Assembly (NCBI GenBank): GCA_041665545.1
Contig: JBAYIQ010000005.1
Location: 1 to 58,197, forward strand
DNA length: 58,197 nt
Source: Patescibacteria group bacterium
GTDB taxonomy: Bacteria; Patescibacteriota; Patescibacteriia; UBA1558; GWA2-36-10
Direction: 5' to 3'
Both the position numbers and the translations under genes were made by a program. Shown here one piece after another: positions 22,628 to 47,808 of this stretch (its first letter is position 1; each line of letters opens with the position of its first letter). The notes beneath the pieces are model-generated. The model ran no database searches. It was given only the letters and a program-made list of their open reading frames with translations, and was not told where the DNA came from.

Positions 22628-22678
22628 GGCCGTGTCTACTAGTATTGCACTGATTTGTTGAACCCACGCTACAAACAC

Positions 22679-22707
22679 TTGACAAAATATTATTATTATG
22701 ATAGTAT
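22679..22707 (+). promoter_or_regulatory. Sigma70-type (extended -10) promoter for the NfeD-like/flotillin pair
   Basis: TTGACA (22679-22684), 17 nt ending in TGA, then TAGTAT (22702-22707). Confidence 0.5.
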
Positions 22708-22869
22708 AAAATGTTTTGACCAAATAGCAAAAAATTGAGCTTTTGGTTAAACCAAAAGTTCTTTGAAATGTCATACATCACTCGTAAAAACAACTAATAA
22801 GATCGAGTTTTCTGTCCACAAATCCTATGGCCACAGTGTCAGTGCAACCACGTAACGAAAGGAGTTTCG

Positions 22870-23460: not shown

Positions 23461-23503
23461 TCCCTGCTCCAACACACCACCGTCTTCCCAAAGGAGTATC
23501 AAG

Positions 23504-25228: not shown

Positions 25229-25280
25229 TAGAACTGACTGTCTCTGACGGTCTGAACTCTGAGCCAAAGCTTTCATAGAG

Positions 25281-25352
25281 GGGAGGCGGTGCTACACAGC
25301 ACCGCCTCCCACTCCAAAACAAGAGGGATCTTTCGTAACCCCTCTTTTTTTA
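25281..25352 (+). terminator. Tandem hairpins/terminator after the flotillin gene
   Basis: 13-bp stem GGGAGGCGGTGCT-ACAC-AGCACCGCCTCCC, then AGAGGG...CCCTCT followed by a T-run. Confidence 0.65.
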
Positions 25353-25400
25353 TTTTTTAACCAAAATAAAAAGGGTACTCCCTAATTACACTGTCAACAC

Positions 25401-25456
25401 AAAAAGACCCTGCACCGGAGCCACGTAAGTGGCGACTGGTACAGGGTCGATTTTTT
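25401..25456. terminator. Bidirectional terminator (serves ORF 25463..26422)
   Basis: Long imperfect stem GACCCTGCACCGG / CTGGTACAGGGTC flanked by A5 and T6. Confidence 0.55.
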
Positions 25457-25462
25457 ATACTT

Positions 25463-26422
25463 TTATTTTACTGGCACTGGTGGCGCCACTTGAACTGGCG
25501 AACCATCCTTATTGAAGGCCTGCACTTTTTGAGTCAAACACTGATAGCCAATACCATGTGGCCAGCGCGTGTCATAATAATAAGCCATGTCTTTGTTTTG
25601 AGTGTTGGCTGAAGCGTCAGTCAAAAAAGTAGTGCACAATTCATACTCCCGATCGCCTTTGACCTGGTATTTAAAAATTTCTTGAGTCTTGGGGTTTTTT
25701 AATAAATCATCACTAATATATGTGTACTCTGCTTTTAGGGCGTTAAAATCCGCTGGTAATTTTTTATATGTTTGATAATAATTATTTAAATCCTGATCAA
25801 TCTGATAAAAATTATTAGTAACCCTTTGATCAATCTGTCTGTTTCTAGCTACTTGAGGAGATTCTACTATAAACAGCGAAGCCACAAAAGTGACAATAAT
25901 CACTGCCAGTGAAGCAAAAAAGTATATTTTTATAACACTGTCTTTATAGCCAGCAGTTTTTTCCCGTCTAATATCATAAAAATAAAAGGAAAAAACAATG
26001 CCCGAAATAACCAGAGTGGTTAAAGATTTGAGAATAATTTGAGTAGTCAAAGCGCCGTTTAAAAAATTGACCAGAATAGCAATCAGAGAGCCAATCATTA
26101 CTAAAAAGGCAATGAAGATGATTAAATAAGTCAACCATTTGCGCACGCCTGATTCTTTGTCTAGCTCGCCTTTGTACAAACTGCCATAAATAAACTTATT
26201 GCAAAAATAATAAGTTGGTGTGGCAATCACTAGTGAGGCGATAGCAAACTTTAAGATATCCGAAGAAAAAGCCGCATTGTTTTGACTCAAAATATCAACA
26301 ATATATTTGTTGATCAATTGAAAAATTATTTGTCCAACGTTGACGGACACGAAGCCCAAAGCCACCAACGCTAACAAATAAAGAAACGCAAACTTCGCTG
26401 AATTGTTTTTTGTGTTATCCAT
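25463..26422 (-). CDS. Hypothetical polytopic membrane protein with a C-terminal soluble domain
   Basis: 319 aa with about six TM helices, followed by a Cys-containing tail (ELCTTF...GYQCL). Confidence 0.5.
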   Translation of the reverse strand: MDNTKNNSAKFAFLYLLALVALGFVSVNVGQIIFQLINKYIVDILSQNNAAFSSDILKFAIASLVIATPTYYFCNKFIYGSLYKGELDKESGVRKWLTYLIIFIAFLVMIGSLIAILVNFLNGALTTQIILKSLTTLVISGIVFSFYFYDIRREKTAGYKDSVIKIYFFASLAVIIVTFVASLFIVESPQVARNRQIDQRVTNNFYQIDQDLNNYYQTYKKLPADFNALKAEYTYISDDLLKNPKTQEIFKYQVKGDREYELCTTFLTDASANTQNKDMAYYYDTRWPHGIGYQCLTQKVQAFNKDGSPVQVAPPVPVK

Positions 26423-36300: not shown

Positions 36301-39300
36301 TATTTGACCAGCCAGCCAAAGTGGCCGCTGTACCATTTTCTAGAAAACCAGAACCAAACTTTATCCTAGCTGATGGTGTGTATTTTTCTCCAGTATTATC
36401 CACCCATATTCTTGTGCGATCCGGATAGGTCACAACTCTTATTCTATCATTGCCCGTATCAGCACCGTTGGTAAAAATCATGGCTGGATTGCCATAGGCA
36501 TAGTCTGCCCAAACAAAACCCTCTTGAGGATTCATGGCCGCGTCAAAACTAGCGCGAAAAATATTAATACCAGTACTAGTCGCGTAGCCAGTACCGACAG
36601 TCTCACCTCCCACCCAAGCGCTGGTTGGTGGTGTAAAGTTACCCCAGTCAGTGGCCGAAGTACTGATAGAATTATCAAAAATCGCAAACTCATCCAAAGC
36701 GCCATCAAAAGGCGCAGCAAAATCATAACGATTACCGAGCTTAATCAAACCAGCGTTTATACCTCTAGTACCGACAGCCGACCCCTGACCAATGGTAAAG
36801 GCCGTGCCATTCAACCAAGCTCTTTTGGCGTTAGCTGTTTCATCCCAAGCCAAACGAAAATGATACCAAGTACCAGCGGTAGCTGAAAATGCTTGCCTTA
36901 ACAAGGTACCTTGAGCAGCGGCGGCATACAGGCCAACTTCCAAGAAACCTTCTGGGGTAGAACTGGAAGTATTTATGTGCCTGATAAATAAACGATCAGT
37001 ATCTATCTGAGCAACATTGGCTTGATCAAGCAAATACATACCATAAGGATGCGTGCTAGTAGCTGGATAACCGTTATAAGAGGGCTTGAACCAAAAATCA
37101 ATTGTGCCATTTTGTCTGGTGGTAATTGTGCCACTTTGGGCCTCAATATTATACCTAGTTGGCACCGCGCTACCAGTCAAAGTAAATGCTGGAGCTATCA
37201 TCACCGCGCTACCTATGCCATTCTGACCAGTCCAAGAACCAGTATTGCGTCGCATGTTATCCTGCAAGAGCAATTGACGCGCGCCAAATTTTGGTCCAGT
37301 CGGTGTGCCAGAATTTATACGCAAAGAGATTTCACTATTTGGCGATGTATAGGTACTACCTGCCGTAGCCGTACCAGCAGCACCAGTAGCACTACCAGTG
37401 ACATCATATTTACCACTAGTAGGGTTCCATTCGAAATCCCAAACTTCATATTTGGTATTGACACCAGTAGTAATTGGCACGCTACTATCAAGACCAAAAC
37501 TATTTCTAATAGCCGTAGAACCAATATATATCTTATCCCCTATTTCCGGATTTACTACGCCATTCCAACCACCTTTGTGTTTGATAATAAAATTAAGATA
37601 ACTGCTAGTAAAAGGAACACTCGGATAAGCCGTGCCTATCAGACCAGCACTTTCTCCGGTCACTCGCCAAGAACCAGTATTATTAAAATTATCAGAAAAA
37701 CCAAGGTCCGTGCTTAAATTATCAAATTTTACTTTATTACCCACACCAGCCGAACCAGCACCAGCATAAACACCAAAGCGACCACCTGCGTAGGTGGCAT
37801 TCGTCTGAGAAGTATCCCACGACCCTTCGGTCGGATCAGTATCACAATCTGTGGTAGCCCAAAACTTAGCATTGAGAGTGGTGCCTACGGCCTGCGCTTT
37901 GAGACAATACCAAGCAGAAGTGGCAAAGGCCTTGGAAAAAGCTGAGCCAATTACTGTCGGCACACCTGCCAAGGTAGTATATAAACCAATGGTATTGACT
38001 GCGTTAGTTTTGTTAATCAAAGCGGCATAGCCATTACCATCAATACTTTGCCTAAAAGTAAGACCTAATTTCCTATTACTACCGTCTTCCACATTATCCA
38101 TATACACCAATGCTTTGATGGTATAATCGCCATCACTCAAACTTCCATAGCTATTATGCAAAGCTATGTTGGCTTGATTTGTTTCATTGATATTTAATGT
38201 CCCGTCACTGATGTGCCAAATATAAGGAGCCGACGGCAAAACATTTACTGTACTGGCCATTCTTTGCACCTCTACCCAACCTGGGGAATTACCATATTCC
38301 AACATATACTGCTCATTGGGATTATAGGTGGCTCCTGGTGTCACAGCGCCAATCTTGGCTTCTTGCACGCCAGAAGACACGGTGATGGCTCCAGAGGAAA
38401 GTCTCTCAATACCACTCATGCCCATAGGAGTGGTCTGGTTGGTCGGAGAGGTGGTCCAAGAACTGACTGAATCAACTTTTAATCTAACCCAATAAGCATT
38501 AACTCCATTAACAGTTGTCTTGGCCGGAGTGCCAGTCAAATCATTTGGTGTCCAGGATAAAATACGACGATTGTTAGTAGCGCCATTTTCCGTCAAAAAA
38601 TTACTAGGATTAAAAGACTTCCATTGCCCGCCATTCAATCGGCTGATTGTTGCTGTTTGATCCGTGGTATAGCCCAAGGGCACCGGCTCGGTAAAGGTAA
38701 TAACGCCAGCGGCGATTACGCTAATGCGTCGATAAATAGGATCAGAATTATTATCGTCAATCATCACTACTTGATCAACACCAAAGTTAGCTTGATTGCC
38801 AGAGGTCACTGACACAGTATAAGAATTTATAGTTGTATTGGCTGACAATGGCACGGAATGTCCGGTACGCATTTGGTATTTATAAGCATCGCGGGGTGTA
38901 AAAGATGTCCAGCCAGCGCCATTATAAAATTGCCATGACAAGGAAGCGCTAGCATCCATGGCTACACCCATATTCAACTCCAAAGAATAAATCATGTTAC
39001 TACCTTGATCGCCAAAATATATAGCATCATCAGCCTCTACTGTTGGATTGGCCCCATCCACAAACATGGTCCAAGCTGATGTAGTAGCATAGTTTCCAGA
39101 AAAACCACTTGTACCATTATTATTATAAATATCAGTCAGGGGTATGGTGCCAATTTCTGCCACTTCCATATTTGGTGTGGGCAAAGAATTACGTCCACCA
39201 GCGGTAGCTAGTCCTGTCCAAACTGGAAACTGATTACCATCATCATTGGCTCCCATCCGTAAAGATGAAAAATTGTTATCAACTGCTTGGTTGGTAGCGC

Positions 39301-42300
39301 CAGCGACAGCTATGTTATCCAGTGGCTGCCAATTACCCACTACATTATCCTTGACATCTACCCAAGTATTGCCAGCATCAGCGGAATTGTTACCCAAGAA
39401 ACCCGTGTCAATATTACCATCAATATCTACAGCTAAGTCGCTTTTCATGGTCCGAAAAGCGTCTGAGCCAGCAACATAAAGATTTGTACGCCCGGCGCGA
39501 GCATTTTGTTGAGTAGCCGTAATAGCGCCAGTCATAGTATAAATACCCGCTCGCCTATCAGCTCCAGTAGGTAATTCGGTAGCTGGTCCCTTGGCCACAA
39601 AAGCACTTTGCCCCGTAGTATAGCCCACAACCAAGTTGGCTGTGACCGTAAGCGTTGTCGCATTTTCAACAGCCGCTACTATTCTAGTTGTGGGTAAAGA
39701 ATCATTATCGTCAATTATAATAGTATCACCGGGGTTAAAACCAGTAGTAGAAATTACTGTCAAAGTAGCGCTAACGGCTGTGTCAGCATTTAAATTTGTA
39801 TTGACTGCTGGACTAACATTATCCCAATATATATCTACCAGAGACGAAGCGGGAATAGCCGCTCCACTTTGACCAAAGGCCACTGAAGCATCGGAATCTA
39901 CTAATATTTTGCCAGGGATAGTCAGGCGATAATGCTTGTTAGCACTGGTATCAACATTTAGCTTGGAACCGGGGCAAACAACCGCTGATATCCAACCGCC
40001 ATTTTGTGAATAAGCCGAGTAGTTGGTACGCGTGCCTGCACCATCATTGATGGCATCACCTGACTTACCGGTGTAAGCCATAGCCGCGTCCCAATCACGA
40101 TCTATTGTTACCACGTGCTCTTGTTTGCTAGACCAGTTAAGATCATTTGTTAAAGCCGAGGCATCACCCGTATCTGGATCAGCTTTTCCATTACCAACTA
40201 TTATAAGATCACCATCAGCTGGGGCTGCGGTATTACCCGTACCGTAGGCCACAAAGAAAATGTGTCTATTGCTTAAAAAAGGATAACGAACAAGCGAAGT
40301 TGCCAAAGCTTCCATTTTAGCATAAAACAACAACACGGATGTGGTGCGCGCTAAAAGAGTTGTAGTGCCTGCTGGATTTTGAGTATGATTAAATGTGGTC
40401 CATTTCATTACCGCACCATCAGCCGGAGTACTAACGGACATGTTAGCTGAAATTTCAGCTATCTGAGCATTATCTGCTGTGTTATAACCAGTGACAAAAG
40501 CTGCGTCCAAAATAAGTGATGGCCCACCGCCACAATTAACATCTGTGCCATTTACTGTCGAAATAAAGCGAGTAACAACGACATTGGAATTATTATCCCA
40601 AATCGCGACACTGGGCGAAGTACCAACAGCCGCGGTAAATCCAGCAATACTAGCCACGCAGACTCTAGTAGTGGCTGTAGAATTTGCTGTCAATGTGGTT
40701 ATGGCTCCCTGGACTATTCTTTGTTTCCACGTAGCTTGCGCTATACTAGCATTTTTATCAGTAGTAAAACCAATCACTGTGGCGGCTGTGGTGATAATAG
40801 AAGCACCGCCCGAACAATTAGAATCAACCTCATTTACTGAAGCTACGGTTAAGGAAACAGTGGTTGTATTGGAATCCCACAAGTTTATTGTTTGATTAGC
40901 AGCAAAACCAGTTATTGAAGCCACACACAACCTAGTTGTCGCCGTAGAATTAGCAGTCAGGGTAGTAAATGGTACTCCATCGTTGACCCAGGAAGCTGCT
41001 GTACCACCAGTGGCTGGGGTAGTTAATTTTCTACTTTGGGTACCGGAAACAGAACCAGCCAATGTCCAATTTGAGCTGGCCGAAGAATAAGTGGCAGTCC
41101 AGTGTTGATTTTCGGTACGCCTTACTGTCGGCATACCAGTACCAGCTGCTGAGTTGCCAGCTACCATAGCGGTAAGCAAACCAGCAGCGCTAGAATTACC
41201 GGTCAAAACCAAAGGCATATTCACGGTTGGAGCGCTGGCGCCAGCAATATCAGTAACACCAATGGTTCTCAATGTGCCATCAACTGTAGGAAAATTACCA
41301 TAAGGAGCATTAGCGGCCCAAGTACCAAAAACAGGAGCGCCAGCGCCAAAGTTGCTAATACGAATACCGTAATGTTTGGTGGTCAATACACCCACTGCTG
41401 GATCAAAACGAAAATCAATCATAGCATGCCCAAAATTTCCTGGCGTCAAGTTTTCACCAGACAAGGCCTGATTGAACTGCCAAATAGTTTTGCGCAACAC
41501 TATTGTATCGTCTGGGTAGTTGTAAGCACCCTGAGTGCCGGTAACATATCCCGTGCAAGAGGTAGTGCAACTAGCTGTCGGAAACTCCAAAAGCTCAACC
41601 AAAATATCCGGATTTGATAAAGAAGTAGCCGTCGGATTTTCCATGGATAACATAATGCCAGACAAATCAGCGCTGGCATTGGGTTTGAAACCAATAAACT
41701 GTGAGGTGGCCAAAGTAGCATTGGCTGCCAAGGCCAAATACCCAATTGCCTGTCCACCAGCACTACCATCAGTCGTGCCACCAGGATTGATTGGGTTAAA
41801 ATTGCCAGACTCAGCATCACCGTTGACGCCGTCGCCAGAATAAGCCAAAGCCGTCAGCCAATTTGAACCACTTAAAGTGGTAGTTTGCCCAGAAACTTTT
41901 ACCAAGCCAGTGAAAGTAGCAGCATAAGCTGGTGTCCGATCTCTAAAAAGCCACTCAAAAAGTGGAGTTAAAGAAGCCACACCTAGTGTGGAAATAACCA
42001 AAAAGAAAATCATCCAGCCAGCCATCGCTCGCCTCAACAACAATTGATTTGGCTCCCTGAGTAATTTCTTAAAATCACCAAAACCAATGACCGGTGACAT
42101 GGCCTCCTGAACTTCGCGTCCTTTGGGTAATATCTTTTTTTCGTATGTTTGAGGAATATATTTAATAAATGGCTTAGCTAGCCACAACATAAACAATTTA
42201 AATTCTTTAACCCTAAAGTTAAATTTAATCTTCAGTGACTTGGGACTGGCAAATAAACTAACCGCTTTAGCCCCAAAAAATCCTAAAAATTTGACATAAA

Positions 42301-42745
42301 AAACAATTGTCGCGTACCAGACAATTTTTAATAAATAAAAAATAATTAAATATAGCGCTTTAAAAATATAAAATACCGCTTGAGCCAAGGCATTGGCTAT
42401 AAAACGCATACCTTTTTCTAAAGCTGGGGCTTTTTCTTTGATAAAATAATAAAAACGACTCAAATATTTCCAAGAAAAACGGAAAAAATTTTTCAAAAAT
42501 GGCCCTAAGTCCTCGACAATAAACTCTTTAACCATTGGAGCCAACCATTTTATAAAACGCCAACAATTTTTGAATATAAAAACCAAAACTACTGACAATA
42601 GATAGCCAACTAGCACTAATATTGAACCGACTATCTTAGCTAACCAGACCAATGAATAAAGTATAAATTCTAGAATTTTAATAATTGTTTTTCTGTGGCG
42701 GATAGATGGTTTTAGTCGCCACGAGGGAAGTAGATGTCTATTCAT
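30314..42745 (-). CDS. Giant (4143 aa) surface protein anchored at both ends
   Basis: One uninterrupted ORF. N-terminal ~270 aa have several TM helices. Then come about 3400 aa rich in Thr/Ser/Gly/Ala/Asn, with beta-helix-like (NNIFSVNNFGIRLNGNS) and LamG/concanavalin-like (GTIDFWFKPS...LDEFAIFDN) segments. These are followed by five ~135-aa tandem repeats, coiled coil, two TM helices and a C-terminal SH3b-like domain (GWLNVRQEAS...GWVFAEY). Confidence 0.85.
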   Translation of the reverse strand: MNRHLLPSWRLKPSIRHRKTIIKILEFILYSLVWLAKIVGSILVLVGYLLSVVLVFIFKNCWRFIKWLAPMVKEFIVEDLGPFLKNFFRFSWKYLSRFYYFIKEKAPALEKGMRFIANALAQAVFYIFKALYLIIFYLLKIVWYATIVFYVKFLGFFGAKAVSLFASPKSLKIKFNFRVKEFKLFMLWLAKPFIKYIPQTYEKKILPKGREVQEAMSPVIGFGDFKKLLREPNQLLLRRAMAGWMIFFLVISTLGVASLTPLFEWLFRDRTPAYAATFTGLVKVSGQTTTLSGSNWLTALAYSGDGVNGDAESGNFNPINPGGTTDGSAGGQAIGYLALAANATLATSQFIGFKPNASADLSGIMLSMENPTATSLSNPDILVELLEFPTASCTTSCTGYVTGTQGAYNYPDDTIVLRKTIWQFNQALSGENLTPGNFGHAMIDFRFDPAVGVLTTKHYGIRISNFGAGAPVFGTWAANAPYGNFPTVDGTLRTIGVTDIAGASAPTVNMPLVLTGNSSAAGLLTAMVAGNSAAGTGMPTVRRTENQHWTATYSSASSNWTLAGSVSGTQSRKLTTPATGGTAASWVNDGVPFTTLTANSTATTRLCVASITGFAANQTINLWDSNTTTVSLTVASVNEVDSNCSGGASIITTAATVIGFTTDKNASIAQATWKQRIVQGAITTLTANSTATTRVCVASIAGFTAAVGTSPSVAIWDNNSNVVVTRFISTVNGTDVNCGGGPSLILDAAFVTGYNTADNAQIAEISANMSVSTPADGAVMKWTTFNHTQNPAGTTTLLARTTSVLLFYAKMEALATSLVRYPFLSNRHIFFVAYGTGNTAAPADGDLIIVGNGKADPDTGDASALTNDLNWSSKQEHVVTIDRDWDAAMAYTGKSGDAINDGAGTRTNYSAYSQNGGWISAVVCPGSKLNVDTSANKHYRLTIPGKILVDSDASVAFGQSGAAIPASSLVDIYWDNVSPAVNTNLNADTAVSATLTVISTTGFNPGDTIIIDDNDSLPTTRIVAAVENATTLTVTANLVVGYTTGQSAFVAKGPATELPTGADRRAGIYTMTGAITATQQNARAGRTNLYVAGSDAFRTMKSDLAVDIDGNIDTGFLGNNSADAGNTWVDVKDNVVGNWQPLDNIAVAGATNQAVDNNFSSLRMGANDDGNQFPVWTGLATAGGRNSLPTPNMEVAEIGTIPLTDIYNNNGTSGFSGNYATTSAWTMFVDGANPTVEADDAIYFGDQGSNMIYSLELNMGVAMDASASLSWQFYNGAGWTSFTPRDAYKYQMRTGHSVPLSANTTINSYTVSVTSGNQANFGVDQVVMIDDNNSDPIYRRISVIAAGVITFTEPVPLGYTTDQTATISRLNGGQWKSFNPSNFLTENGATNNRRILSWTPNDLTGTPAKTTVNGVNAYWVRLKVDSVSSWTTSPTNQTTPMGMSGIERLSSGAITVSSGVQEAKIGAVTPGATYNPNEQYMLEYGNSPGWVEVQRMASTVNVLPSAPYIWHISDGTLNINETNQANIALHNSYGSLSDGDYTIKALVYMDNVEDGSNRKLGLTFRQSIDGNGYAALINKTNAVNTIGLYTTLAGVPTVIGSAFSKAFATSAWYCLKAQAVGTTLNAKFWATTDCDTDPTEGSWDTSQTNATYAGGRFGVYAGAGSAGVGNKVKFDNLSTDLGFSDNFNNTGSWRVTGESAGLIGTAYPSVPFTSSYLNFIIKHKGGWNGVVNPEIGDKIYIGSTAIRNSFGLDSSVPITTGVNTKYEVWDFEWNPTSGKYDVTGSATGAAGTATAGSTYTSPNSEISLRINSGTPTGPKFGARQLLLQDNMRRNTGSWTGQNGIGSAVMIAPAFTLTGSAVPTRYNIEAQSGTITTRQNGTIDFWFKPSYNGYPATSTHPYGMYLLDQANVAQIDTDRLFIRHINTSSSTPEGFLEVGLYAAAAQGTLLRQAFSATAGTWYHFRLAWDETANAKRAWLNGTAFTIGQGSAVGTRGINAGLIKLGNRYDFAAPFDGALDEFAIFDNSISTSATDWGNFTPPTSAWVGGETVGTGYATSTGINIFRASFDAAMNPQEGFVWADYAYGNPAMIFTNGADTGNDRIRVVTYPDRTRIWVDNTGEKYTPSARIKFGSGFLENGTAATLAGWSNNFTFHHKAKRDSTSAPYNSPVLNLKRSIHMWSDEEINATGATVATPIHMGNAFGTVAVGLSGLANLNVSHLSTENQYSNFSIMNNPYTSTLVKPTQTVSKSVFYNYYDRAYTVSAKTQGTNTVGAYFVTTNFGATTLGTGYNATASQNVGIDGSIFMGCRNTNAALTSANGAASFVSGRLYTIANSQFYNNGVTGITSGAVNLNSGVAKMTIANNIFSVNNFGIRLNGNSFLTMSDNVFDGSVSDTVTLNQAGYGAGISVAQTTANVGIMDSGSIFGRGSWNEADISIPANTTTFEAESLMQFTGSNTQLLSPVLFGMADYNNMSRIPEHFYGLTIPGADIRGNYSSSTKDIVNFTTFGNMRTSGLGLNDSTAHTASGYAWRLDSLNPDAPLEYTAKVIGVANQPLAITGYMNINSYYGSTNLPTVTLSGLGMTGANLTWTAQDTANDWQQFVVSGTPTESAIADIKFSVQSAFVAADSGTSEIIDDSLGNYLPIIVEDVDKSWTTNQWVGYKFKDANGKIFDIVKNTAQLLYLKGSGVVPHLLSTTLTNATMGDYIIFRQPSVYIDDMAVLSGTVDTGTLDFHSSGQPVVPWLSTGLTATSIWGAQVGSFADIDGSFGQLLNDRLAIKRGLVNDVAASATVFVTDMTQATSNFYQNQMVVMMSGQNAGIARRISSYNGATKAITVDAAMPYAPAFNDEFIILSYYSSATGGGGATAQEIWEYNVRRLTDATLNSGSLATLADIQALNNISAADVWSAGGRSLSGGVTLSDPAQVWNIASALLSTGGSIGKLIVDNLNATISSRGTSNLTASDVWSEGTRTITSIENDGLAALALEIWTYETRTLTSGDLTAQRVWDTLLTSITTINSIGSLLKTNIDTTISSRASSAEVTAVANSLSNLINNLLVAQKAVDDPSPSTTEFITTLTNANDDFYNDGVLVFTSGSNAGQVRRISNYVGATKKLTITPALSVAPSSSDTFTILASTANASLDAAAIWAYDGRYLSGAALDSGSLATLSNIQSTESTLSGQLNTLINNLIVEQKVVNDAGASDNQFITTLTSNSNDFYNNGVLVFTSGVNAGQARRITDYVGASKQVTVSPALSLAPVNADTFTILAQTANSAVDAAAIWTYGDRYLSGATLDSGSLATLSDIQDTETVLASAISVNSTKLDKIINALIVSETSVNDLAPSTTVFATALTNATNDFYKNNILLFTSGLNIGQARRIMGYNGTTKAITVDPALALAPANADTFTILAQTSNTATLDAASIWAYSGRYLSGADLDSGSLATLSDLQSTETTLGNSIDAVSNSVDLLSNDLIAIRSAVSTAEVSPTISLFGTNLTSAVNDLYAHALLTFTSGQNSGVARRIDDYNGTTKAITVEPDLPFAPASSDAFTILKTLAVPVTKISTIQSDVAGIKDDVTLIKADIALIKTQLDNIEASIATLETSIDNIEVGSGSSTTNNTNVYNVKPEEMFTAMGTISNSIQNINTKLGRLDSDTLSSILSISQENMTDIKYVRNKLADYKAVTTVQRQVVQQATAPIVSTWYTSGSVDLNIMLSNPAKTAQKVPFKIYLPKEAKVEHIMDDGGFNIQYDVQLDTLYAAGEIELAPGASVKKFIKMRDIWQIAENDLTIAKTQANDFYKKLEKNQLSSQALLLKNDIDSKVEKILRTQKENTASPQDKIMTYRENKESFISVQTELDELKSLLSQADASRGFLGALGGIQTISVWGIIIAFVTGFGLLVTILFSMWKHQVAIANGQMALQSHILTGKPLDMEKMNSSGGRRKKKKAAVSKNSPANIASVEAKAKVSTSFLIYIKQFFTRLFKNIRQNKVWLITFVLIFIVLYLLVDKYGILANIRQNLSKYIKTDELRSANNVTVASETDVNKLDNIPVLADNNMAFSFGSESASSTSSSTVPATEDILMKKQVIIKDTPTGWLNVRQEASKETAVVAKVSAGEKYDLLSQVAAQGLEKFGWYQIALTENKVGWVFAEYAEELK
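32090..34330 (-). repeat. In-frame tandem coding repeats inside the giant gene
   Basis: The marker AAAATAGTAAA[AG]G recurs at 32119, 32545, 32962 and 33358 (spacings 426, 417 and 396 nt). A diverged unit lies near 34192. The protein unit is F.T.LT...DFY...L.FTSG.N.G..RRI..Y.G.TK..TV.P.L..AP...D.FTIL, followed by IW.Y..R.LSGA.LDSGSLATLS. Confidence 0.85.
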
Positions 42746-42894: not shown

Positions 42895-44175
42895 TCATGT
42901 TTTTTCTTTGATTCTCCTCTTTATTTTTCTTAATGTTATAAAAACAAAAAACCCAAACCACAAAACAAACAAAATCGCTGATAAATAGAGGGTTAAACCA
43001 TTAAATTTAGCTTGCGATTTTAACCTTTCAACTAAAGCTTGGAAATAATTATTTTTTTCTACCACAAAGTTTAAATTCATCCGCACTTCACTGGCCTCAC
43101 TTTTTGTTAATTGATCAATGGCGGTCACAGCCACAATCTGCCCCTTATAATAGCCAGCTTTCATGTCTAGGGGCATAGTAAACGCTAAATCAATATTTTT
43201 GGCCTTGCCCATTTCTAGGCTGACATTTTTTACATCAATTTTTAAAACATCTTTTTGATCATCGCTAAAATAAGCCGCTAGCTCCACATCTAAATCACGC
43301 TGACCAATGTTAACCAATAATAAATTTTTTATATCCCATATCTCACCCGGCTTGACTGTATGATCAAGATTATAGTCATTTGGTGAAAACATCAACTCTC
43401 CGCTAGCCCACGCCGAAAATGGCAGACCTAGAAAAAACAAGAGAGCAAAAAATTTAAGCAATCGACTGGTGCTATTTTTTTTACCTAGATAATGTTGCCT
43501 CTTTTTTTCTAACAATCTTTCAATCGCATACCTCAACATAGTGCGAGGCATTGTTTTATAATTTTTATCCAAAAAATTAAGCAAAATCTGCTCATCACAG
43601 CGCTTGCCAACTTCTCTCAGCATCCAACCAACGGCTTTCTGGATCAAATCGTGCTTATCGTGTAGCAAAATATTGGCTATTTTTATAGTTTCTTTAGATT
43701 GACAGTAATAAATAAATTGAAAAGTTGCTAAAATAGCTATACGCCTTTGCCAAAGATTTTTGCTTTTGGCTAATTTGTACAAAATATTTTTTGGTTTATC
43801 AGCCAAATAAGCGCCCACTATACGTGGAGCTGTCAAATCTACTAAATCCCAATTATTTATATATTTATAATTTTTTAAATACAAACCAAAAATTTGCTTC
43901 TGTTTTTTGCTATCCCCCTTTTTATATTGTTCAACCAAAATTAATAAAGCGCAAAGGCGTTCTTCATGGATTTTAGAATGCAACAACTCGCTGACTTGCT
44001 TAAGCGGTAAATCAGAGTATTGTTTAGAGACTTTTCTAATGTCGGGCACCACTACGCCAATGAATTTGTCACCCTCGCTGTATTGTCCTTTACCAGTTTT
44101 AAAAAATCTCTGCAAAATTTTGGCTTTGCTCGACTTAGATAATTTTTTTAGGTCTTTTTTAACATTGGCTACCAT
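42895..44175 (-). CDS. AlkD-like DNA alkylation-repair domain fused to a signal/TM plus exported domain plus TM
   Basis: The N-terminal ~230 aa match the DNA_alkylation/AlkD HEAT-like family by eye (ILQRFFKTGKGQYSEGDKF.G, NNWDLVD, LWQRRIAILATF, QKAVGWMLREVGK). Then come LLKFFALLFFLGLPFSAWA, a ~140-aa beta-rich segment and a C-terminal TM helix. Confidence 0.6.
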   Translation of the reverse strand: MVANVKKDLKKLSKSSKAKILQRFFKTGKGQYSEGDKFIGVVVPDIRKVSKQYSDLPLKQVSELLHSKIHEERLCALLILVEQYKKGDSKKQKQIFGLYLKNYKYINNWDLVDLTAPRIVGAYLADKPKNILYKLAKSKNLWQRRIAILATFQFIYYCQSKETIKIANILLHDKHDLIQKAVGWMLREVGKRCDEQILLNFLDKNYKTMPRTMLRYAIERLLEKKRQHYLGKKNSTSRLLKFFALLFFLGLPFSAWASGELMFSPNDYNLDHTVKPGEIWDIKNLLLVNIGQRDLDVELAAYFSDDQKDVLKIDVKNVSLEMGKAKNIDLAFTMPLDMKAGYYKGQIVAVTAIDQLTKSEASEVRMNLNFVVEKNNYFQALVERLKSQAKFNGLTLYLSAILFVLWFGFFVFITLRKIKRRIKEKT

Positions 44176-44267
44176 AAACTAATTTTAACTTAAATTCTAA
44201 ATAAACAAAAGCGACCCGCCTCGCCCTGCAGATGCAGTGGCGAGCTGAGCCGCATCAAAAAATTAAA

Positions 44268-45548
44268 TTAACTACCAAAATTCATTAATACTTCTGGTTT
44301 AAATATCATGAGCAAGCCAATGACCAACATCAAAATGCCACCAATCAATCGCGAAGCTCTGGTGTATTTGGTGGTCAAACCAGTAGCTTGTAAAGTAAAC
44401 ATAGCAATAAAGAAAACAACCAAATCATCCAGCATAAAAAAGAATATGTAGAGTAAAATATAGCCATAATAATGCCAGCCAGTCATATTATTCATGGCTA
44501 GCATCTGAGTATAAACTGCTGGAAAGCCAGCTGAGCATAATAACTCGATCAAATTGACCATAAAAGCCAAGGCCATGATACCAAACAAAGCTAACCAAAA
44601 ATTTTGATGTGAAACGTAACCCTTTAGCTTATCCATGGTTTTCTTTTTTTTCTGAACATCACCAACTTCACAGGATGCGTCTTTGTTTTTGTAAAAATCT
44701 TTGAGACTATAGCCAGCGCCCATTAAGGCAACTAGACCAATCAATATTTTTACCCAAGCTACTACTCCGATAAATAAAAAGATGTTAAGCCAAGCCACCA
44801 TAAATAGAAAATAAACCGCGGCTGAAGCTACTATAAAAGATGAGCCCAATATCCACATCCTTTTCCTGTTTTGCATACCGATCAGCAAGCTGATCAAAAA
44901 AACCAAAGTCCACATAGCGCAGGGATTGAAGCCGTCCAAAGCACCAATGATAATTGTCAAAACTGGCAAAGAAAACTTAGCCATATCAATCTTACCAAAT
45001 ATACCAGCGTCTATTTTTCCAACTGCTTTTGATTTATCTTGCTGGCTGGGATCATCTTTTTTATCAATACTTGCTTCCTCGATTATTTTTAGAGCTGGCA
45101 CTATAGAAGCCACAGAATCCGGACAAATGCCCCCCACACATTCTTTGATTCTGGCTTCTATCTTAGGAGCAGTATAGCTTTCATCAAAACCAGTGAAATA
45201 TTGATCACCAATAATAGTAAAGGGCACGCCGCCAACATTAGCTTGGAGTTTTTTAGCTACTTCAATCATCAAACTAGCATTGCTTTGATGATTCCAGACC
45301 TCAAACCTCTGTATTCTTAAGTCCGGATATTTGGACTCAATGCTTTTCAAAAATACTTCTTCTTTGGCGCAATGCGGACAGCCATCGCCCCAAAATAAGT
45401 ACAAATTTGTTTTAGCTGAGCTGGAACCAGTTATTTCTATACCTTGGTTGTTTGTTTGATTATTCTCAGAGTTGCTAAACTTAACAATCACAAAAAGAAA
45501 TACAACAACTAATAACGCTCCCAAATAAAGATACTTATATTTGCCCAT
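44268..45548 (-). CDS. Thioredoxin-fold plus DsbD/CcdA-like membrane thiol-disulfide transporter
   Basis: 426 aa. N-terminal anchor, CPHC thioredoxin-like domain, then a polytopic domain with Cys in FNPCAMW and ELLCSAGFP. Confidence 0.6.
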   Translation of the reverse strand: MGKYKYLYLGALLVVVFLFVIVKFSNSENNQTNNQGIEITGSSSAKTNLYLFWGDGCPHCAKEEVFLKSIESKYPDLRIQRFEVWNHQSNASLMIEVAKKLQANVGGVPFTIIGDQYFTGFDESYTAPKIEARIKECVGGICPDSVASIVPALKIIEEASIDKKDDPSQQDKSKAVGKIDAGIFGKIDMAKFSLPVLTIIIGALDGFNPCAMWTLVFLISLLIGMQNRKRMWILGSSFIVASAAVYFLFMVAWLNIFLFIGVVAWVKILIGLVALMGAGYSLKDFYKNKDASCEVGDVQKKKKTMDKLKGYVSHQNFWLALFGIMALAFMVNLIELLCSAGFPAVYTQMLAMNNMTGWHYYGYILLYIFFFMLDDLVVFFIAMFTLQATGLTTKYTRASRLIGGILMLVIGLLMIFKPEVLMNFGS

Positions 45549-45605
45549 ATATATTAATTTATTTTATTAAGCTTTTTTATAAAAAATTAAAACTACTAAT
45601 ATTTT

Positions 45606-46079
45606 TTAATCATCTTCTTCCTCATCATCATTGCCAACCACATTAGTATTTTGATTTGTGTTAGCTGGTGGTATGGCCACCGCATCTGTAGAAACAGTTG
45701 ATCCGATTATACCGATCTTGTAACTAGCCAAAATATTGCTAGCATTAGCCGAATGACCCTGAGTAGCAAAGGCAGCGGCAATATCGCCTCCGCAATATTT
45801 AATAATGTTTGATTGCCCACCGGGATGTGATTTTATATATGATGTCACATTATAGACATTATTGCCAGCTGTCACCCAGCAGTCAGAAGCCATATTGTGT
45901 TGGGTTACTATAGCAGTAGTTAGAGTATATGTCACTGGCGCGATATTGGCAGGATTGTTGGTTAATAAATTTCCTAGGTTGGTTAAACTTCCATTATTTT
46001 GTCTTACTAAACTATTAACAAAAAAAATGCTGACTGCTCCCCAAAAGATAAATACCGCTATAATTATTATTTTATTCAT
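45606..46079 (-). CDS. Membrane-anchored cytochrome b5-like haem-binding domain protein
   Basis: 157 aa. N-terminal TM helix, HNMASDCWVTAGNNVYNVTSYIKSHPGG (the b5-type HPGG motif) and an acidic C-terminus. Confidence 0.65.
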   Translation of the reverse strand: MNKIIIIAVFIFWGAVSIFFVNSLVRQNNGSLTNLGNLLTNNPANIAPVTYTLTTAIVTQHNMASDCWVTAGNNVYNVTSYIKSHPGGQSNIIKYCGGDIAAAFATQGHSANASNILASYKIGIIGSTVSTDAVAIPPANTNQNTNVVGNDDEEEDD

Positions 46080-46187
46080 CCGGTTAGAAATTTAAATAAT
46101 TAAACTTTTTATAACTAAAGTAAAATTTTGCTAAATAATTTTTATACATATTTCTAAATATTATCCCGTGAATTTCTAACGGGATGA
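46076..46187. repeat. ~110-bp inverted-repeat intergenic element, copy C
   Basis: Arms TCATCCGGTTAGAAATT (46076-46092) and AATTTCTAACGGGATGA (46171-46187), with one mismatch. The left arm contains the ATG of ORF 45606..46079. About 45 nt of the interior is shared with copy A. Confidence 0.85.
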
Positions 46188-46196
46188 ATATATTTA

Positions 46197-47513
46197 TTAT
46201 AACATTTTAAAAGCCTCGGGATTTATATTTTTTTTCGGAATACCTGTTCTTAGCAAAGCACTGGTCAAAGCCGACATCATGCCTACTGGCCCACAAATAT
46301 AAAAATGGCAAGCCCTAATATCAGCAACAAATTTTCCTAACTTTTCTAAATCAAAGCGCCCTTCTTTATCGGATATATAAATATTCAATTTAAATTGCGG
46401 ATAAGTTGTTTGGGCCTGCTGAAAAATATCAAGTGCCACCAAATCTTTTTCCGAAGTCACTATATAAAATAAATCCACAACACCGGCGCCAGTTTTTTTG
46501 ACACCCAAGGACTGAGCCAAACTCACAAAAGGAGTGATGCCAATGCCTCCTGCCAGCCAAATTTGATGATAATTGAGATCTAAGTTGTCGCCAAAACTAC
46601 CATAAGGTCCATCAAGCACGGCCACACTACCAACCTTGAGTTTTGCCAGCTTGGCCGTATAAGCACCAAGATTCTTGGCCATGATAGTCAAGCTGTGATC
46701 TGGATAAATTTGAGCCACTGAAAAAGGATGTTCCTCTCCTTTTTTTATATCAGGAAAGCTGACAAAAATAAATTGCCCTGGCTTGACGTCAATTATTTTT
46801 TTATCTGGCTGAAACGTGATGCTGACTATACTAGTACCTAGTTGTTCAACTTTACTCACTACAAAACGTCTAGATTTTATAGCATAACCAACCAAAAATA
46901 ATCTAACTAAATAGAGCAAAACACTAATTGATATTAACAAAATATAATAAATGGCTAACAACGGAATGCTTTTTATATCGCTGTCTATTAGTAGTGCGTG
47001 AACACCGCCAATCATCAATGGTACGGCCAAAATACTATGCAAAGATTTTAATTTTTCATATTGCAGGCGCCAAAAAAAAGTCATCAACACTAAAGCCATA
47101 AATACGAGAAGAGAAATATAGCCAAAAAGATAAGCGGTTTGAGACCAATTAGTAAAAATACCAAAAGCCGCTTGATTAGAAACTGACAAACGGCTGGCTG
47201 CCAAAAATAAAGGATGCAAAATTATAAAAGTAAAGGAAATTGTACCGAGCCAACGATGAATATTGATGACTTTTGGCAAACCATAAAAAAGCTTGTCCAG
47301 CCAGACAAAACGAGCAGACATCAGAAGCGCTAAAGAAAAAATCGATAAGCCCAACAGCCCAGATAATTTACCTAAAGTGGAAAACAAAACTGGCCAAGGA
47401 TAAAACGATCGGCTAAAAGGTACGTCTGTATACAAAATAAAAAGCGGTACTATCACAATTAGTGCCAGAATTAACAAGCTTATGTATGATTTTATGGTTT
47501 TTTGATTAACCAT
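46197..47513 (-). CDS. NOX/ferric-reductase-like flavocytochrome (FRD membrane domain plus FAD/NAD(P)H domain)
   Basis: 438 aa. Two His pairs with 13- and 12-residue spacing in TM helices (HRWLGTISFTFIILH and HSILAVPLMIGGVH). Also HPFSV (FAD), GGIGITPF (NAD(P)H) and YICGP. Confidence 0.75.
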   Translation of the reverse strand: MVNQKTIKSYISLLILALIVIVPLFILYTDVPFSRSFYPWPVLFSTLGKLSGLLGLSIFSLALLMSARFVWLDKLFYGLPKVINIHRWLGTISFTFIILHPLFLAASRLSVSNQAAFGIFTNWSQTAYLFGYISLLVFMALVLMTFFWRLQYEKLKSLHSILAVPLMIGGVHALLIDSDIKSIPLLAIYYILLISISVLLYLVRLFLVGYAIKSRRFVVSKVEQLGTSIVSITFQPDKKIIDVKPGQFIFVSFPDIKKGEEHPFSVAQIYPDHSLTIMAKNLGAYTAKLAKLKVGSVAVLDGPYGSFGDNLDLNYHQIWLAGGIGITPFVSLAQSLGVKKTGAGVVDLFYIVTSEKDLVALDIFQQAQTTYPQFKLNIYISDKEGRFDLEKLGKFVADIRACHFYICGPVGMMSALTSALLRTGIPKKNINPEAFKML

Positions 47514-47561
47514 TTATAGATTATATTATTTGTTTATTATAATTAATTATGCGCTTCTGGT

Positions 47562-47587
47562 CAAACAAAAAACAACCCGACGGGTTG
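47562..47587 (-). terminator. Terminator of the tRNA-Ser unit
   Basis: The minus strand reads CAACC-CGTCG-GGTTG followed by TTTTTTGTTTG. Confidence 0.55.
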
Positions 47588-47597: not shown

Positions 47598-47718
47598 ATG
47601 TCTCTCGACTCGCTACGCTCGCTCAAGACACTCGATTCATGATACGAAAATGGTCGTAGGTGCTGAAAAGCACCGGAGACCACGAGTGAGTTTTTTGCTA
47701 AGCAAAAAACGAATCGAG
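47598..47718 (-). ncRNA. Conserved structured RNA directly 3' of CCA, copy 3
   Basis: The minus strand reads CTCGATTCGTTTTTTGCTTAGCAAAAAACTCACTCGTGGTCTCCGGTGCTTTTCAGCACCTACGACCATT...GAATCGAGTG, plus a GAGCGAGCGTAGCGAGTCGA hairpin. It shows compensatory changes relative to copies 1 and 2. Confidence 0.6.
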
Positions 47719-47808
47719 TGGCGGAGAGGACAGGATTTGAACCTGCGAGGGATTTTACTCCCTACTCGCTTTCCAAGCGAGCGCACTAGACCACTATGCG
47801 ACCTCTCC
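47719..47808 (-). tRNA. tRNA-Ser(GGA), class II, CCA encoded
   Basis: 90-nt hand-folded cloverleaf. Acceptor GGAGAGG/CCTCTCC, anticodon loop TTGGAAA and a long variable arm. Confidence 0.9.

Follow-up and report, generated by a model that had tools for sequence, protein, structure and literature searches.

The outer haem of the NOX-type flavocytochrome of S. pneumoniae (SpNOX) is solvent-exposed, and the protein lacks a canonical O2 site; it reduces cytochrome c directly at 124.7 per min compared with 48 per min for O2 (PMC11564096). A related relay from an FRD-family protein to a periplasmic protein is that from MsrQ to MsrP (PMC5676040). Among bacterial cytochromes b5, cytochrome b558 of Ectothiorhodospira vacuolata (1CXY) is a soluble periplasmic protein whose function is not known and whose Cys pair forms a disulfide (PMC8877833). 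For CPR bacteria, a PF00173 gene was reported near pFre in 185 of 1427 pFre-containing genomes, and a membrane redox complex of unknown function was proposed (bioRxiv 10.1101/2021.11.17.468889).

The window, which is the whole stretch of 58,197 nucleotides analysed here, comes from a Patescibacteria group bacterium (contig JBAYIQ010000005.1). A sequence-only reading of it had described three consecutive minus-strand genes for a NOX-like flavocytochrome, an exported cytochrome b5-like protein, and a thioredoxin-membrane protein. All three open reading frames were confirmed (44268-45548, 45606-46079, and 46197-47513), and every motif named in that reading was present. The features of the locus are as follows, in the direction of transcription:

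47573..47587, minus strand: terminator-like hairpin with a T-run (from the sequence), closing the upstream tRNA-Ser unit
47536..47564, minus strand: sigma-70-like promoter TTGACC-17-TATAAT, 11/12, just 5' of the NOX start codon (consensus match only)
46197..47513, minus strand: NOX-like flavocytochrome b gene (gene 1), 438 aa (ORF, Pfam, SpNOX 8qt6 match, motifs)
46899..47513, minus strand: NOX transmembrane (ferric-reductase) domain, residues 1-205 (hydropathy, charge distribution; Pfam residues 52-168)
46200..46898, minus strand: NOX dehydrogenase domain, residues 206-438 (HPFSV FAD motif, GIGITP NAD(P)H motif, CGP)
46077..46186, no strand assigned: MITE-like inverted-repeat element copy C in the NOX-b5 spacer (repeat comparison)
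45606..46079, minus strand: anchored/exported cytochrome b5 gene (gene 2), 157 aa (ORF, Pfam Cyt-b5, PDB b5 matches, family alignment)
46011..46079, minus strand: b5 N-terminal signal-anchor, with MNK and then a hydrophobic stretch of about 19 residues (hydropathy)
45699..45923, minus strand: b5 haem domain, residues 53-127, with axial His85/His109 and invariant Cys67/Cys96 (Pfam, PDB, alignment)
45609..45629, minus strand: acidic C-terminal b5 tail DDEEEDD (family alignment)
44268..45548, minus strand: Trx-membrane gene (gene 3), 426 aa, with an N-terminal anchor, a CPHC thioredoxin-fold domain outside the cytoplasm, and a polytopic membrane domain that contains Cys residues and comes from a family lacking annotation (ORF)
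44208..44227, minus strand: terminator-like hairpin 3' of the Trx-membrane gene (consensus match only), a possible end of the transcription unit

The other window neighbours scanned comprised tRNA-Ser, MscL, a poly(A)-polymerase/CCA-type enzyme, a PEP-utilising enzyme, and a DNA-alkylation repair protein; no two-component genes were found among the window neighbours scanned.

Gene 1 encodes a complete NOX-type transmembrane flavocytochrome. Ferric_reduct (E 1.5e-11), FAD_binding_8 (3.6e-11), and NAD_binding_1 (7e-10) all matched past their Pfam cut-offs, and the closest solved relative was SpNOX (8qt6, E 2.4e-23, residues 52-436). Bacterial NOX proteins were defined by the sequence filters of Hajjar et al. 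2017, which specify an H[PSA]F[TS][LIMV] FAD motif and two His-x12/14-His motifs separated by 20 or more residues and lying in TM3 and TM5 of a domain with six helices (PMC5676040). The window protein carries the FAD motif (HPFSV, 262), the NAD(P)H motif (GIGITP, 323), and both haem motifs (H86-x13-H100 and H159-x12-H172), and thus passes all of these filters; a CGP motif is found at 407. Hydropathy gave six TM segments, with the His motifs in helices 3 and 5. The four haem ligands (H86, H100, H159, and H172) and H262, P263, and F264 of the FAD motif are invariant among 16 NOX homologues. By analogy with NOX/SpNOX topology, H86/H159 would hold the inner haem and H100/H172 the outer haem. Leu104, also invariant among the 16 homologues, sits four residues past the outer-haem ligand, in place of the canonical second His of the eukaryotic (NOX2/NOX5) O2 site.

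Gene 2 encodes a b5 with both haem-ligand His residues. Of the families that the sequence-only reading had named, Ferric_reduct and FAD_binding_8 matched gene 1 and Cyt-b5 (PF00173) matched gene 2, the last over residues 56-124 with 67.3 bits (cut-off 23.7). The axial H85 (HPGG) and H109 (GHS) align to the ligand His residues of solved b5 structures such as 2ibj, and both are invariant in 17 family members. The single hydrophobic segment of the protein is N-terminal (residues 4-22, hydropathy), and a N/T/P-rich linker is present besides this anchor and the acidic tail. C67 and C96 are 29 residues apart, at positions matching the 1CXY Cys pair, and they probably form a disulfide as well. The Cys-His-Cys-His pattern was found in 21 of 26 NOX-linked b5 proteins, and a K/R-then-hydrophobic N-terminus in 25 of the 26, the sole exception being a 5'-truncated reading (L065). 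Since these N-termini are of the signal type, one of the 26 partners carries a lipobox (LSAC in L085), and the Cys pair is common to the periplasmic b558, the b5 domain is almost certainly extracytoplasmic, as the earlier reading had supposed. An acidic C-terminus (at least six D/E in the last 12 residues) was observed in 12 of the 26 proteins, including two from DPANN archaea, and the family alignment showed tandem b5 domains in many relatives.

The strongly conserved unit consists of two genes, NOX and, directly downstream, a b5 that is membrane-anchored or secreted. The b5 family was seen in six distinct genomic contexts, and in each of them NOX was upstream of b5; the distance was 4-29 bp in L001, L004, L006, L010, and L012, and in L095/L096 NOX was immediately upstream as a stop-to-stop ORF. 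The window NOX falls in a small CPR clade (about 40 clusters at ≥47% identity), in which b5 came next after NOX at every locus examined, or was left as a remnant: L013 has an intact NOX followed by a 26-aa remnant of the b5 anchor only. For a distant survey, 80 NOX-like loci with 24-35% identity were taken from species-representative genomes. A Cyt-b5 ORF was found on the same strand in 19-20 of them (18 directly downstream and two upstream), and Pfam confirmed nine of the ten such ORFs tested. With 25 non-redundant loci, b5 was the commonest conserved neighbour of NOX-like genes; no iron or haem transporter appeared as a conserved neighbour in this survey. The pair was found in CPR bacteria, DPANN archaea (L016, L017, and L046), and a high-GC proteobacterial clade (L065, L071, L076, and L086; GC 0.58-0.61), and the full NOX architecture was seen at the DPANN and proteobacterial loci, the NOX of L046 being cut at the contig start. 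The pairing follows NOX subclades. About three quarters of the 80 sampled NOX-like loci were without a b5 neighbour, so NOX does not in general depend on b5. No NOX-b5 fusion was detected among the top 120 homologues or three longer ones.

The proposed linkage of NOX and b5 was therefore borne out well beyond this genome, by the six contexts and the 19-20 distant loci. A predicted cytoplasmic b5, a b5 without His ligands, and a lack of co-conservation had been named as findings that would speak against the reading, and for the NOX-b5 pair the sequence analysis pointed the other way on each. Two other remarks did not hold. A NOX homologue had been called unexpected for an organism of this lifestyle, but PF01794 proteins have been reported from 1427 of 7645 CPR genomes, and the pairing had been thought undescribed, but the 2021 preprint places cyt-b5 within 10 kb of ferric-reductase genes in the 185 CPR genomes (bioRxiv 10.1101/2021.11.17.468889).

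We consider it fairly likely that NOX and b5 form a two-gene unit in which b5 is the dedicated carrier of electrons from NOX at the outer face of the membrane. Their adjacency is circumstantial evidence of a link between the proteins, and we infer the topology of b5, the electron transfer to it, and its physiological role from sequence comparison. NAD(P)H in the cytoplasm would reduce the FAD of the C-terminal dehydrogenase domain of NOX, and electrons would then traverse the membrane from the inner haem (His86/His159) to the outer haem (His100/His172) and pass to the bis-His haem of b5. With its N-terminal anchor, the b5 domain would stay attached on the outer side of the membrane, probably braced by the Cys67-Cys96 disulfide, and would serve as a mobile one-electron carrier to a terminal acceptor, for which ferric iron or other metal chelates, another surface protein, and O2 are candidates. 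CPR bacteria are generally considered unable to make haem, so the three haems of each NOX-b5 unit would need to be scavenged.

A self-sufficient NOX would instead pass electrons to O2 and form superoxide or H2O2, whether to scavenge O2, to regenerate NAD(P)+, or to attack neighbours; b5 would then be a modulator, stabiliser, or superoxide scavenger rather than an acceptor. We regard this as unlikely. A b5 is missing beside most NOX-like genes sampled and L013 has retained NOX after the decay of b5, but the tight same-strand adjacency of the two genes is kept across domains of life, and carrying single electrons is the classical role of a bis-His b5. The invariant Leu104 also stands where the eukaryotic O2 site has its second His. 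SpNOX, the nearest solved relative, does oxidise NAD(P)H with O2 in vitro (PMC5676040, PMC11564096), but the authors of its structure question whether its physiological acceptor is O2 (PMC11564096).

It is similarly doubtful that b5 is mainly a hemophore-like haem-binding or iron-acquisition protein of haem-auxotrophic CPR and DPANN organisms, with NOX reducing the bound haem iron or Fe(III) for release or uptake. The extracytoplasmic position of b5, its non-covalently bound haem, the tandem b5 domains of many relatives, and the acidic, cation-binding-like tails in 12 of the 26 partners would suit such a role. However, the same module occurs in Proteobacteria, with a close b5 homologue in Ectothiorhodospira, and the Proteobacteria with the module and Ectothiorhodospira make their own haem. 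The strict conservation of both axial His residues is typical of a stable electron carrier and not of a haem shuttle, and the conserved neighbours hold no iron/haem transporter. Eukaryotic FRD-family proteins are ferric reductases (PMC3591440), and the plant CYBDOM ferric reductases use a transmembrane di-haem part with an external haem domain (PMC10784552), but SpNOX reduces Fe(III) directly only very slowly (PMC11564096).

Gene 3 probably encodes a separate thiol-disulfide membrane oxidoreductase, of a family widespread in Patescibacteria. Its thioredoxin fold contains CPHC at residues 57-60, and its multi-helix membrane domain has invariant C210 (NPC), C293, and C338 (CSAGFP), which together with C57, C60, and C142 make up the invariant Cys set. 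The family has at least 7904 homologues (2841 clusters at 50% identity), and all informative source names among the best 120 of these were Patescibacteria-type. Profile searches did not support the label DsbD/CcdA-like, which gene 3 had been given: DsbD (PF02683) and DsbD_2 (PF13386) did not match window gene 3 at E ≤10, 40 homologues at E ≤1, or 10 distant representatives at E ≤0.1; a PDB profile search with gene 3 returned neither CcdA nor DsbD at E ≤10, and the membrane part had no Pfam match. ScsC, DsbA, and BdbD were at the top of the fold matches of the Trx domain, which combines the thioredoxin fold with the CPHC active site of the DsbA/ScsC type and leans towards an oxidising or isomerase function rather than a DsbD-type one. 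The DsbD/CcdA fold is a 3+3 inverted-repeat helical bundle that has one Cys per half; for gene 3, the fold searches returned Trx-domain matches only, and pLDDT was 71 for the full-length AF2 model, only about 50-80 in its membrane part, and 51.6, too low for use, for the domain-only model. Gene 3 shares with the DsbD/CcdA and DsbA-DsbB/VKOR relays an extracytoplasmic CxxC thioredoxin-fold domain and a membrane domain with invariant Cys residues, and by this analogy it plausibly works as a thiol-disulfide relay; unlike DsbD/CcdA, it gave no profile match to DsbD, DsbD_2, or CcdA, and both its CPHC motif and the folds nearest to it resemble DsbA/ScsC. Its contribution would at most be to assist the folding of exported proteins with disulfides, the window b5 among them.

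That NOX, b5, and the thioredoxin protein form one system exporting reducing power, including for disulfide reduction, as the sequence-only reading had proposed, is quite improbable: the genes follow one another on the same strand, with a promoter-like site before them and a terminator-like site after them, their order is kept in the closest relatives (NOX-b5-Trx-membrane in L010 and L012, b5-Trx-membrane in L098), and a thiol oxidoreductase could service the probable b5 disulfide, but gene 3 adjoins NOX-b5 or b5 only in the immediate lineage of the window (the window, L010/L011, L012, and L098), is missing beside the pair in L001, L004, L006, L095, L096, and all 19-20 distant pairs, belongs to a family far larger than the NOX-b5 clade, and has a DsbA-type motif and fold, with no DsbD or DsbD_2 match in 50 members and no CcdA match in the PDB profile search.

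Returning to the two-gene unit, the inverted-repeat element reported before b5 is real. Three elements of about 108 bp occur in the window, copy C among them, with inverted copies of AATTTCTAACGGGATG as their boundaries; this sequence has six matches compared with 0.6 expected. The left terminal repeat of copy C ends in the b5 start codon, and the NOX-b5 spacer is 117 bp in the window versus 4-29 bp in relatives; the element was absent from all 98 fetched loci. In the window this mobile-looking element lies between NOX and b5, and the two may no longer be co-transcribed.

In quinone-poor fermenters such as CPR and DPANN organisms, NOX-b5 would be a minimal means, independent of quinones, of unloading electrons from NAD(P)H to the exterior. 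We tentatively suggest, as a possibility well short of probable, that NOX and the exported b5 are a self-contained quinone-independent extracellular electron-transfer chain of ultra-small fermenters (CPR, DPANN) and some Proteobacteria that regenerates NAD(P)+ on external acceptors, that b5 is the sought physiological protein acceptor of bacterial NOX homologues, and that Ectothiorhodospira b558, which has lacked an assigned function since 1999, is its proteobacterial version. The pair recurs in many unrelated microbes and offers a candidate, open to experimental test, for the acceptor to which bacterial NOX enzymes naturally pass electrons.

Compared with known systems, the window NOX is built like SpNOX (PDB 8qt6/8qq7), as a single chain of six TM helices with two bis-His haems and an FAD/NAD(P)H domain, with short loops and no extra domains. 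Identity between the two is only about 25-30%, and a b5 partner is not discussed in the cited SpNOX literature, whereas the window NOX has an adjoining b5. The window b5 resembles E. vacuolata b558 in its bis-His b5 fold, its N-terminal export signal, and a Cys pair at the 1CXY positions, 29 residues apart, with a putative disulfide; unlike the soluble 1CXY, it keeps a long hydrophobic anchor, the linker, and the acidic tail. In comparison with 1CXY, the window b5 gives E 1.7e-9 and the proteobacterial NOX-linked b5 of L071 gives E 9.5e-26; the b5 of that proteobacterial clade is a close homologue of b558. Like the CPR pFre/cytochrome-b5 clusters, the window has a PF01794 gene colocalised with a PF00173 gene; the preprint centres on clusters with a Tyr-ligated MAPR-like cytb5MY, extra b5-like genes, and a two-component system, whereas only one b5, of the classical bis-His kind, is present in the window, which falls outside the cytb5MY/pFre operon type and only within the looser grouping by a PF01794 and a PF00173 gene no more than 10 kb apart. 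According to the preprint, colocalisation did not occur outside CPR (bioRxiv 10.1101/2021.11.17.468889); in the present survey it also occurred in DPANN archaea and a proteobacterial clade. In E. coli MsrQ-MsrP, as in NOX-b5, an FRD-family di-haem membrane protein serves a dedicated extracytoplasmic partner encoded alongside (PMC5676040, PMC11564096); MsrQ has no fused dehydrogenase domain and draws on quinol or Fre, unlike the window NOX, and MsrP is a molybdoenzyme repairing methionine sulfoxide and not a haem carrier. Plant CYBDOM (cytochrome b561 + DOMON) has folds unrelated to those of NOX-b5 (b561/DOMON vs FRD/b5), with ascorbate as the donor and its domains fused in one chain, but it is like NOX-b5 in that electrons from a transmembrane di-haem wire reach an extracellular domain with a b haem, in this case one acting as a ferric reductase (PMC10784552).

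A sequence-only reading had placed a three-gene electron-export cluster (NOX-like, b5-like, and thioredoxin/DsbD-like) at 44268-47513, and three consecutive minus-strand ORFs were found exactly there: gene 1 (a NOX-like flavocytochrome), gene 2 (an anchored cytochrome b5), and gene 3 (a CPHC Trx-fold protein with a membrane domain). The window comes from a metagenome-assembled genome of Patescibacteria (CPR). Handles from L001 to L098 denote loci retrieved from other genomes and metagenomes for comparison. The features of the region are as follows.

47719-47808, minus strand: tRNA-Ser, one flank of the region of interest
Between the tRNA-Ser unit and the NOX promoter-like site: terminator-like hairpin, closing the tRNA-Ser unit
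47564-47536: promoter-like site TTGACC-17-TATAAT, a near-consensus match just upstream of NOX
46197-47513, minus strand: gene 1 (NOX), ORF of 438 aa
~12085-12192, 21816-21925, and 46077-46186: three copies of a MITE-like element of ~108 bp with inverted copies of AATTTCTAACGGGATG at its ends
45606-46079, minus strand: gene 2 (b5), ORF of 157 aa
44268-45548, minus strand: gene 3, ORF of 426 aa
44271-44993: membrane domain of gene 3, with invariant C210 (NPC), C293 (loop Cys), and C338 (CSAGFP)
3' of gene 3: terminator-like hairpin
42895-44175: DNA-alkylation-repair gene, the other flank of the region of interest

Gene 1 scored above threshold for Pfam Ferric_reduct, FAD_binding_8, and NAD_binding_1 and carried every sequence feature used as a filter to define bacterial NOX (HPFSV, GIGITP, H86-x13-H100, and H159-x12-H172; PMC5676040). 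Six helices were identified by hydropathy. The third and fifth held the bis-His motifs, and the dehydrogenase domain lay on the side where positive charges were concentrated. The four His residues, the FAD and NAD(P)H motifs, and CGP were invariant across 16 NOX homologues, down to 29% identity. The closest solved relative was the Streptococcus pneumoniae NOX (SpNOX; 8qt6), which matched over nearly the full length (E 2.4e-23), and the assignment of gene 1 as a NOX-type protein with both bis-His sites thus held. When fusions of NOX and b5 were sought, PF00173 (Cyt-b5) was present in none of the 120 NOX homologues listed, and no b5 domain was found in three longer homologues.

Gene 2 was clearly identified by Pfam as a cytochrome b5 (67.3 bits; cut-off, 23.7), and its axial haem ligands, H85 (HPGG) and H109 (GHS), both aligned with solved b5 structures. 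The word-indexed search returned relatives in only 27 clusters, all annotated as PF00173. Their alignment revealed a common plan of MNK and a hydrophobic anchor, a low-complexity linker rich in N/T/P, a single or tandem b5 domain, and a poly-acidic C-terminus; the tandem form occurred in relatives of 260-275 aa, and H85, H109, C67, and C96 were invariant. The N-terminus of 25 of the 26 NOX-linked b5 proteins consisted of Met, one to three K/R, and a hydrophobic core, which is the pattern of a signal peptide or signal anchor, and the sole exception (L065) was a 5'-truncated reading. The b5 of L085 contained a lipoprotein box (LSAC), and the full Cys...His-Pro...Cys...His pattern was kept with fixed spacing in 21/26. 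The partner b5 of the proteobacterial locus L071 matched the structure of Ectothiorhodospira vacuolata cytochrome b558 (PDB 1CXY; E 9.5e-26), which has the same two cysteines as the NOX-linked b5 proteins. Based on the signal-type N-termini, the lipobox, the conserved Cys pair, and the likeness to 1CXY, the window b5 is best read as an exported, disulfide-braced protein tethered at the outer face.

The acidic tail was conserved in 12 of the 26 NOX-linked partners. These poly-acidic C-termini (6-11 D/E in the last 12 residues) were observed in CPR and DPANN lineages, in the window (45609-45629) and in L001, L004, L006, L010, L012, L016, L017, L018, L027, and L096; docking, cation binding, and wall attachment are possible roles. 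Some Saccharibacteria-type partners combined a tandem b5 with a C-terminal extension of ~60 aa that appeared PepSY-like by eye (L015 7296-8342, L028 7302-8387, and L027 7184-7819), and Pfam searches at E up to 0.01 gave no confirmation of this likeness.

The linkage of NOX and b5 recurred in other genomes. The two closest relatives, L010 and L012 (NOX 80-85% identical), had the order NOX, b5, Trx-membrane gene, and DNA_alkylation. A NOX gene (434-438 aa) lay 4-15 bp upstream of b5 on the same strand in three unrelated genomic contexts (L001, L004, and L006-L009), and NOX was also followed by b5 in the metagenome loci L095 and L096. Scanning metagenomes with the b5 alignment yielded only four loci, and both of the two with upstream sequence contained NOX. 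A member of the window's NOX clade on an 847-kb contig, L013, encoded an intact NOX (59% identical) and no b5 gene. Thirteen bases after its NOX stop, a 26-codon ORF (7330-7410, MNKIVIIVVFIFWAAISFFYASSLVK-stop) corresponds to the b5 anchor followed by a stop; it is a partner gene that has decayed, and recently.

For a wider survey, one genome per species was scanned with the NOX alignment, which retrieved at least 80 loci of 24-35% identity from many phyla. No close NOX orthologue (47% identity or more) was among the genome-scan matches listed, and the NOX clade of the window was therefore sampled only via contigs encoding homologues. An HMM built from the b5 alignment was run on all six-frame ORFs of 80 NOX loci and detected a b5 ORF in 20 of the 80 listed, 18 immediately downstream and 2 upstream, all on the same strand. 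Cyt-b5 exceeded the Pfam threshold in nine of ten b5 ORFs tested; the match in L025 (E 5e-4) was dropped, as Pfam did not confirm it. This left b5 in 19-20 of the 80 listed, and the NOX-b5 pair of the sequence-only reading held.

All-against-all ORF clustering identified the b5 family as the commonest conserved neighbour within 3 kb of NOX (25 non-redundant loci), with b5 downstream on the same strand in 23. Two-component regulators ranked next (13 and 10 loci), chiefly among Proteobacteria without b5, and the same clustering found no transporter or enzyme as a conserved third neighbour of NOX-b5. The b5-positive lineages included Saccharibacteria, Paceibacterota, Buchananbacteria, and WS6 among the CPR, two Pacearchaeota and one Woesearchaeota among the DPANN archaea, and four proteobacterial loci with a GC of 0.58-0.61 (Porticoccaceae, Halopseudomonas, a betaproteobacterium, and Comamonadaceae). 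The b5-linked NOX genes outside CPR had the full three-domain architecture except for L046, where the contig start truncated the gene to its FAD and NAD(P)H domains. A rough NJ tree of NOX placed the b5-positive genes in particular clades; the four proteobacterial ones formed their own clade, and the large alpha-, beta-, and gammaproteobacterial clades were uniformly b5-negative. Given this spread and the clade-wise pattern, the linkage is of old origin, follows the structure of the NOX phylogeny, and extends beyond CPR.

Gene 3 did not belong to this conserved pair. Among the 98 loci, a homologue of it adjoined NOX-b5 solely in the window's own lineage (the window itself, L010/L011, L012, and L098), and the proposal of a three-gene system was not supported. 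We conclude that gene 3 adjoins NOX-b5 by local synteny and lies outside the conserved module. Gene 3 had an N-terminal anchor, a thioredoxin-fold domain with CPHC, and a polytopic membrane domain with the family motif CSAGxP. CPHC is the classical DsbA motif, and the Trx domain matched DsbA, ScsC, and BdbD by both sequence profile and fold. The CPHC thioredoxin fold and the Cys-bearing membrane domain of the sequence-only reading were therefore retained, whereas its DsbD/CcdA identity was not supported: the DsbD, DsbD_2, and CcdA profiles had no match in gene 3 (Pfam, E up to 10) or in 50 relatives (40 homologues and 10 distant), Pfam gave no family for the membrane domain in these proteins, and the family profile matched only Trx folds, and no CcdA/DsbD, among PDB sequences. 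No fold was assigned to the membrane domain. The family had at least 7904 matches in the word-indexed search, and the informative source names among the top 120 were all Patescibacteria-type. The membrane domain alone formed 2841 clusters at 50% identity and was nearly always fused to a Trx/Grx-type extension of 150-200 aa, with the Trx domain C-terminal once. From these sequence comparisons, we conclude that gene 3 appears to be a thiol-disulfide membrane oxidoreductase of a family without a Pfam model, widespread in Patescibacteria. CPR bacteria may rely chiefly on this family as their thiol-disulfide membrane relay, and exported disulfide proteins, the window b5 among them, may be incidental clients of gene 3.

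The spacer between NOX and b5 was 117 bp in the window versus 4-29 bp in relatives, and it was filled by the third element copy (46077-46186), so the inverted repeat noticed before b5 was one of three. The motif AATTTCTAACGGGATG had 6 matches in the window against 0.6 expected and was absent from all 98 related loci. The ATG of the terminal repeat was the start codon of b5, of dnaG (20031-21818, minus), and of an ORF at 21923-22534 (plus); in an exonuclease-III-like gene it coincided with an ATG in frame (12087). A MITE and a start-site/regulatory cassette are possible identities for the element. In this genome, b5 may have gained expression signals of its own. A 7-bp hairpin between NOX and b5 was rejected as a terminator, as it had no T-run and was the inner edge of the element's right terminal repeat.

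Several other features of the window were recorded. The flanking DNA_alkylation ORF (42895-44175) was 426 aa versus 233-234 aa in L010 and L012, with an extra C-terminal half that runs from a signal-like hydrophobic segment at its start to a terminal TM helix, pointing to fused genes or the loss of a stop codon. The GC content was ~0.36-0.42 across most of the window; an island at 22000-26000 had a GC of 0.54-0.56 (~0.40 elsewhere) and long overlapping ORFs on both strands, including a plus-strand SPFH/Band-7 protein (23504-25228). Rfam detected no rRNA in this island, which was possibly acquired horizontally. Three tRNA genes (Ser, Met, and Leu) were each followed immediately by a sequence of ~70-94 nt (47628-47720, 13232-13324, and 12628-12699); the copies were 86-87% identical, contained short hairpins, and represent a shared tRNA trailer or terminator element. 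A group I intron (14473-14696; Rfam, 81 bits, full model) bordered the tRNA cluster, with the second tRNA-Met (13998-14073) ~400 nt upstream of it. The giant 4143-aa ORF (30314-42745) probably encodes a cell-surface protein, with a membrane region at the N-terminus and long repetitive stretches rich in T/S/N/A.

The best-supported reading of NOX and b5 is a three-haem wire. The FAD of the cytoplasmic NOX domain would be reduced by NAD(P)H, and electrons would pass from FAD to the inner haem, the outer haem, and the external b5. The potentials of NOX haems are typically far below those of b5 haems, which would make transfer from NOX to b5 downhill. With b5 near 0 mV, Fe(III) chelates would be favoured as acceptors over one-electron O2 reduction. 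The occurrence of the pair in three very different prokaryote groups joins the questions of the bacterial NOX acceptor and of the role of bacterial b5, whose function is given as unknown (PMC8877833), and makes both directly testable. For CPR and DPANN organisms, devoid of respiratory chains, the module would offer a low-cost way of passing electrons to an external sink, and it would thereby bear on episymbiont redox balance and host interaction.

The pairing had been taken as undescribed; however, in a 2021 preprint a PF00173 gene lay no more than 10 kb from a PF01794 gene (ferric-reductase-like, pFre) in 185 of 1427 pFre-containing CPR genomes (bioRxiv 10.1101/2021.11.17.468889, section 3.5). 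Its authors put forward an uncharacterised membrane complex specific to CPR and noted that they had not seen the colocalisation elsewhere (bioRxiv 10.1101/2021.11.17.468889). The window is thus another instance of a noted, uncharacterised association, and our literature search on other NOX-b5 reports and on CPR disulfide machinery retrieved nothing beyond this preprint. Our claim is limited by this earlier report of the CPR colocalisation, and its case rests on sequence rather than biochemistry. The module would be an FRD/NOX-family transmembrane electron export system with a dedicated external b5 carrier, a kind partly anticipated in the preprint. The present comparisons add its simple two-gene form, NOX then a bis-His, disulfide-type b5; the occurrence of the pair in DPANN archaea and a proteobacterial clade; the finding that the proteobacterial partner is homologous to E. 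vacuolata b558, a crystallised protein; and a tie to the question of the bacterial NOX acceptor.

In the characterised SpNOX, the outer haem is unusually exposed to solvent and a canonical O2 pocket is lacking; the enzyme reduces cytochrome c directly at 124.7 per min versus 48 per min for O2 and 3.6 per min for Fe(III)-citrate (PMC11564096). A protein acceptor was explicitly proposed for SpNOX in the same structure paper (PMC11564096), and Hajjar et al. made the same suggestion from the precedent of electron transfer from MsrQ to MsrP (PMC5676040). These systems are strong precedents for electron transfer from a NOX to an external protein.
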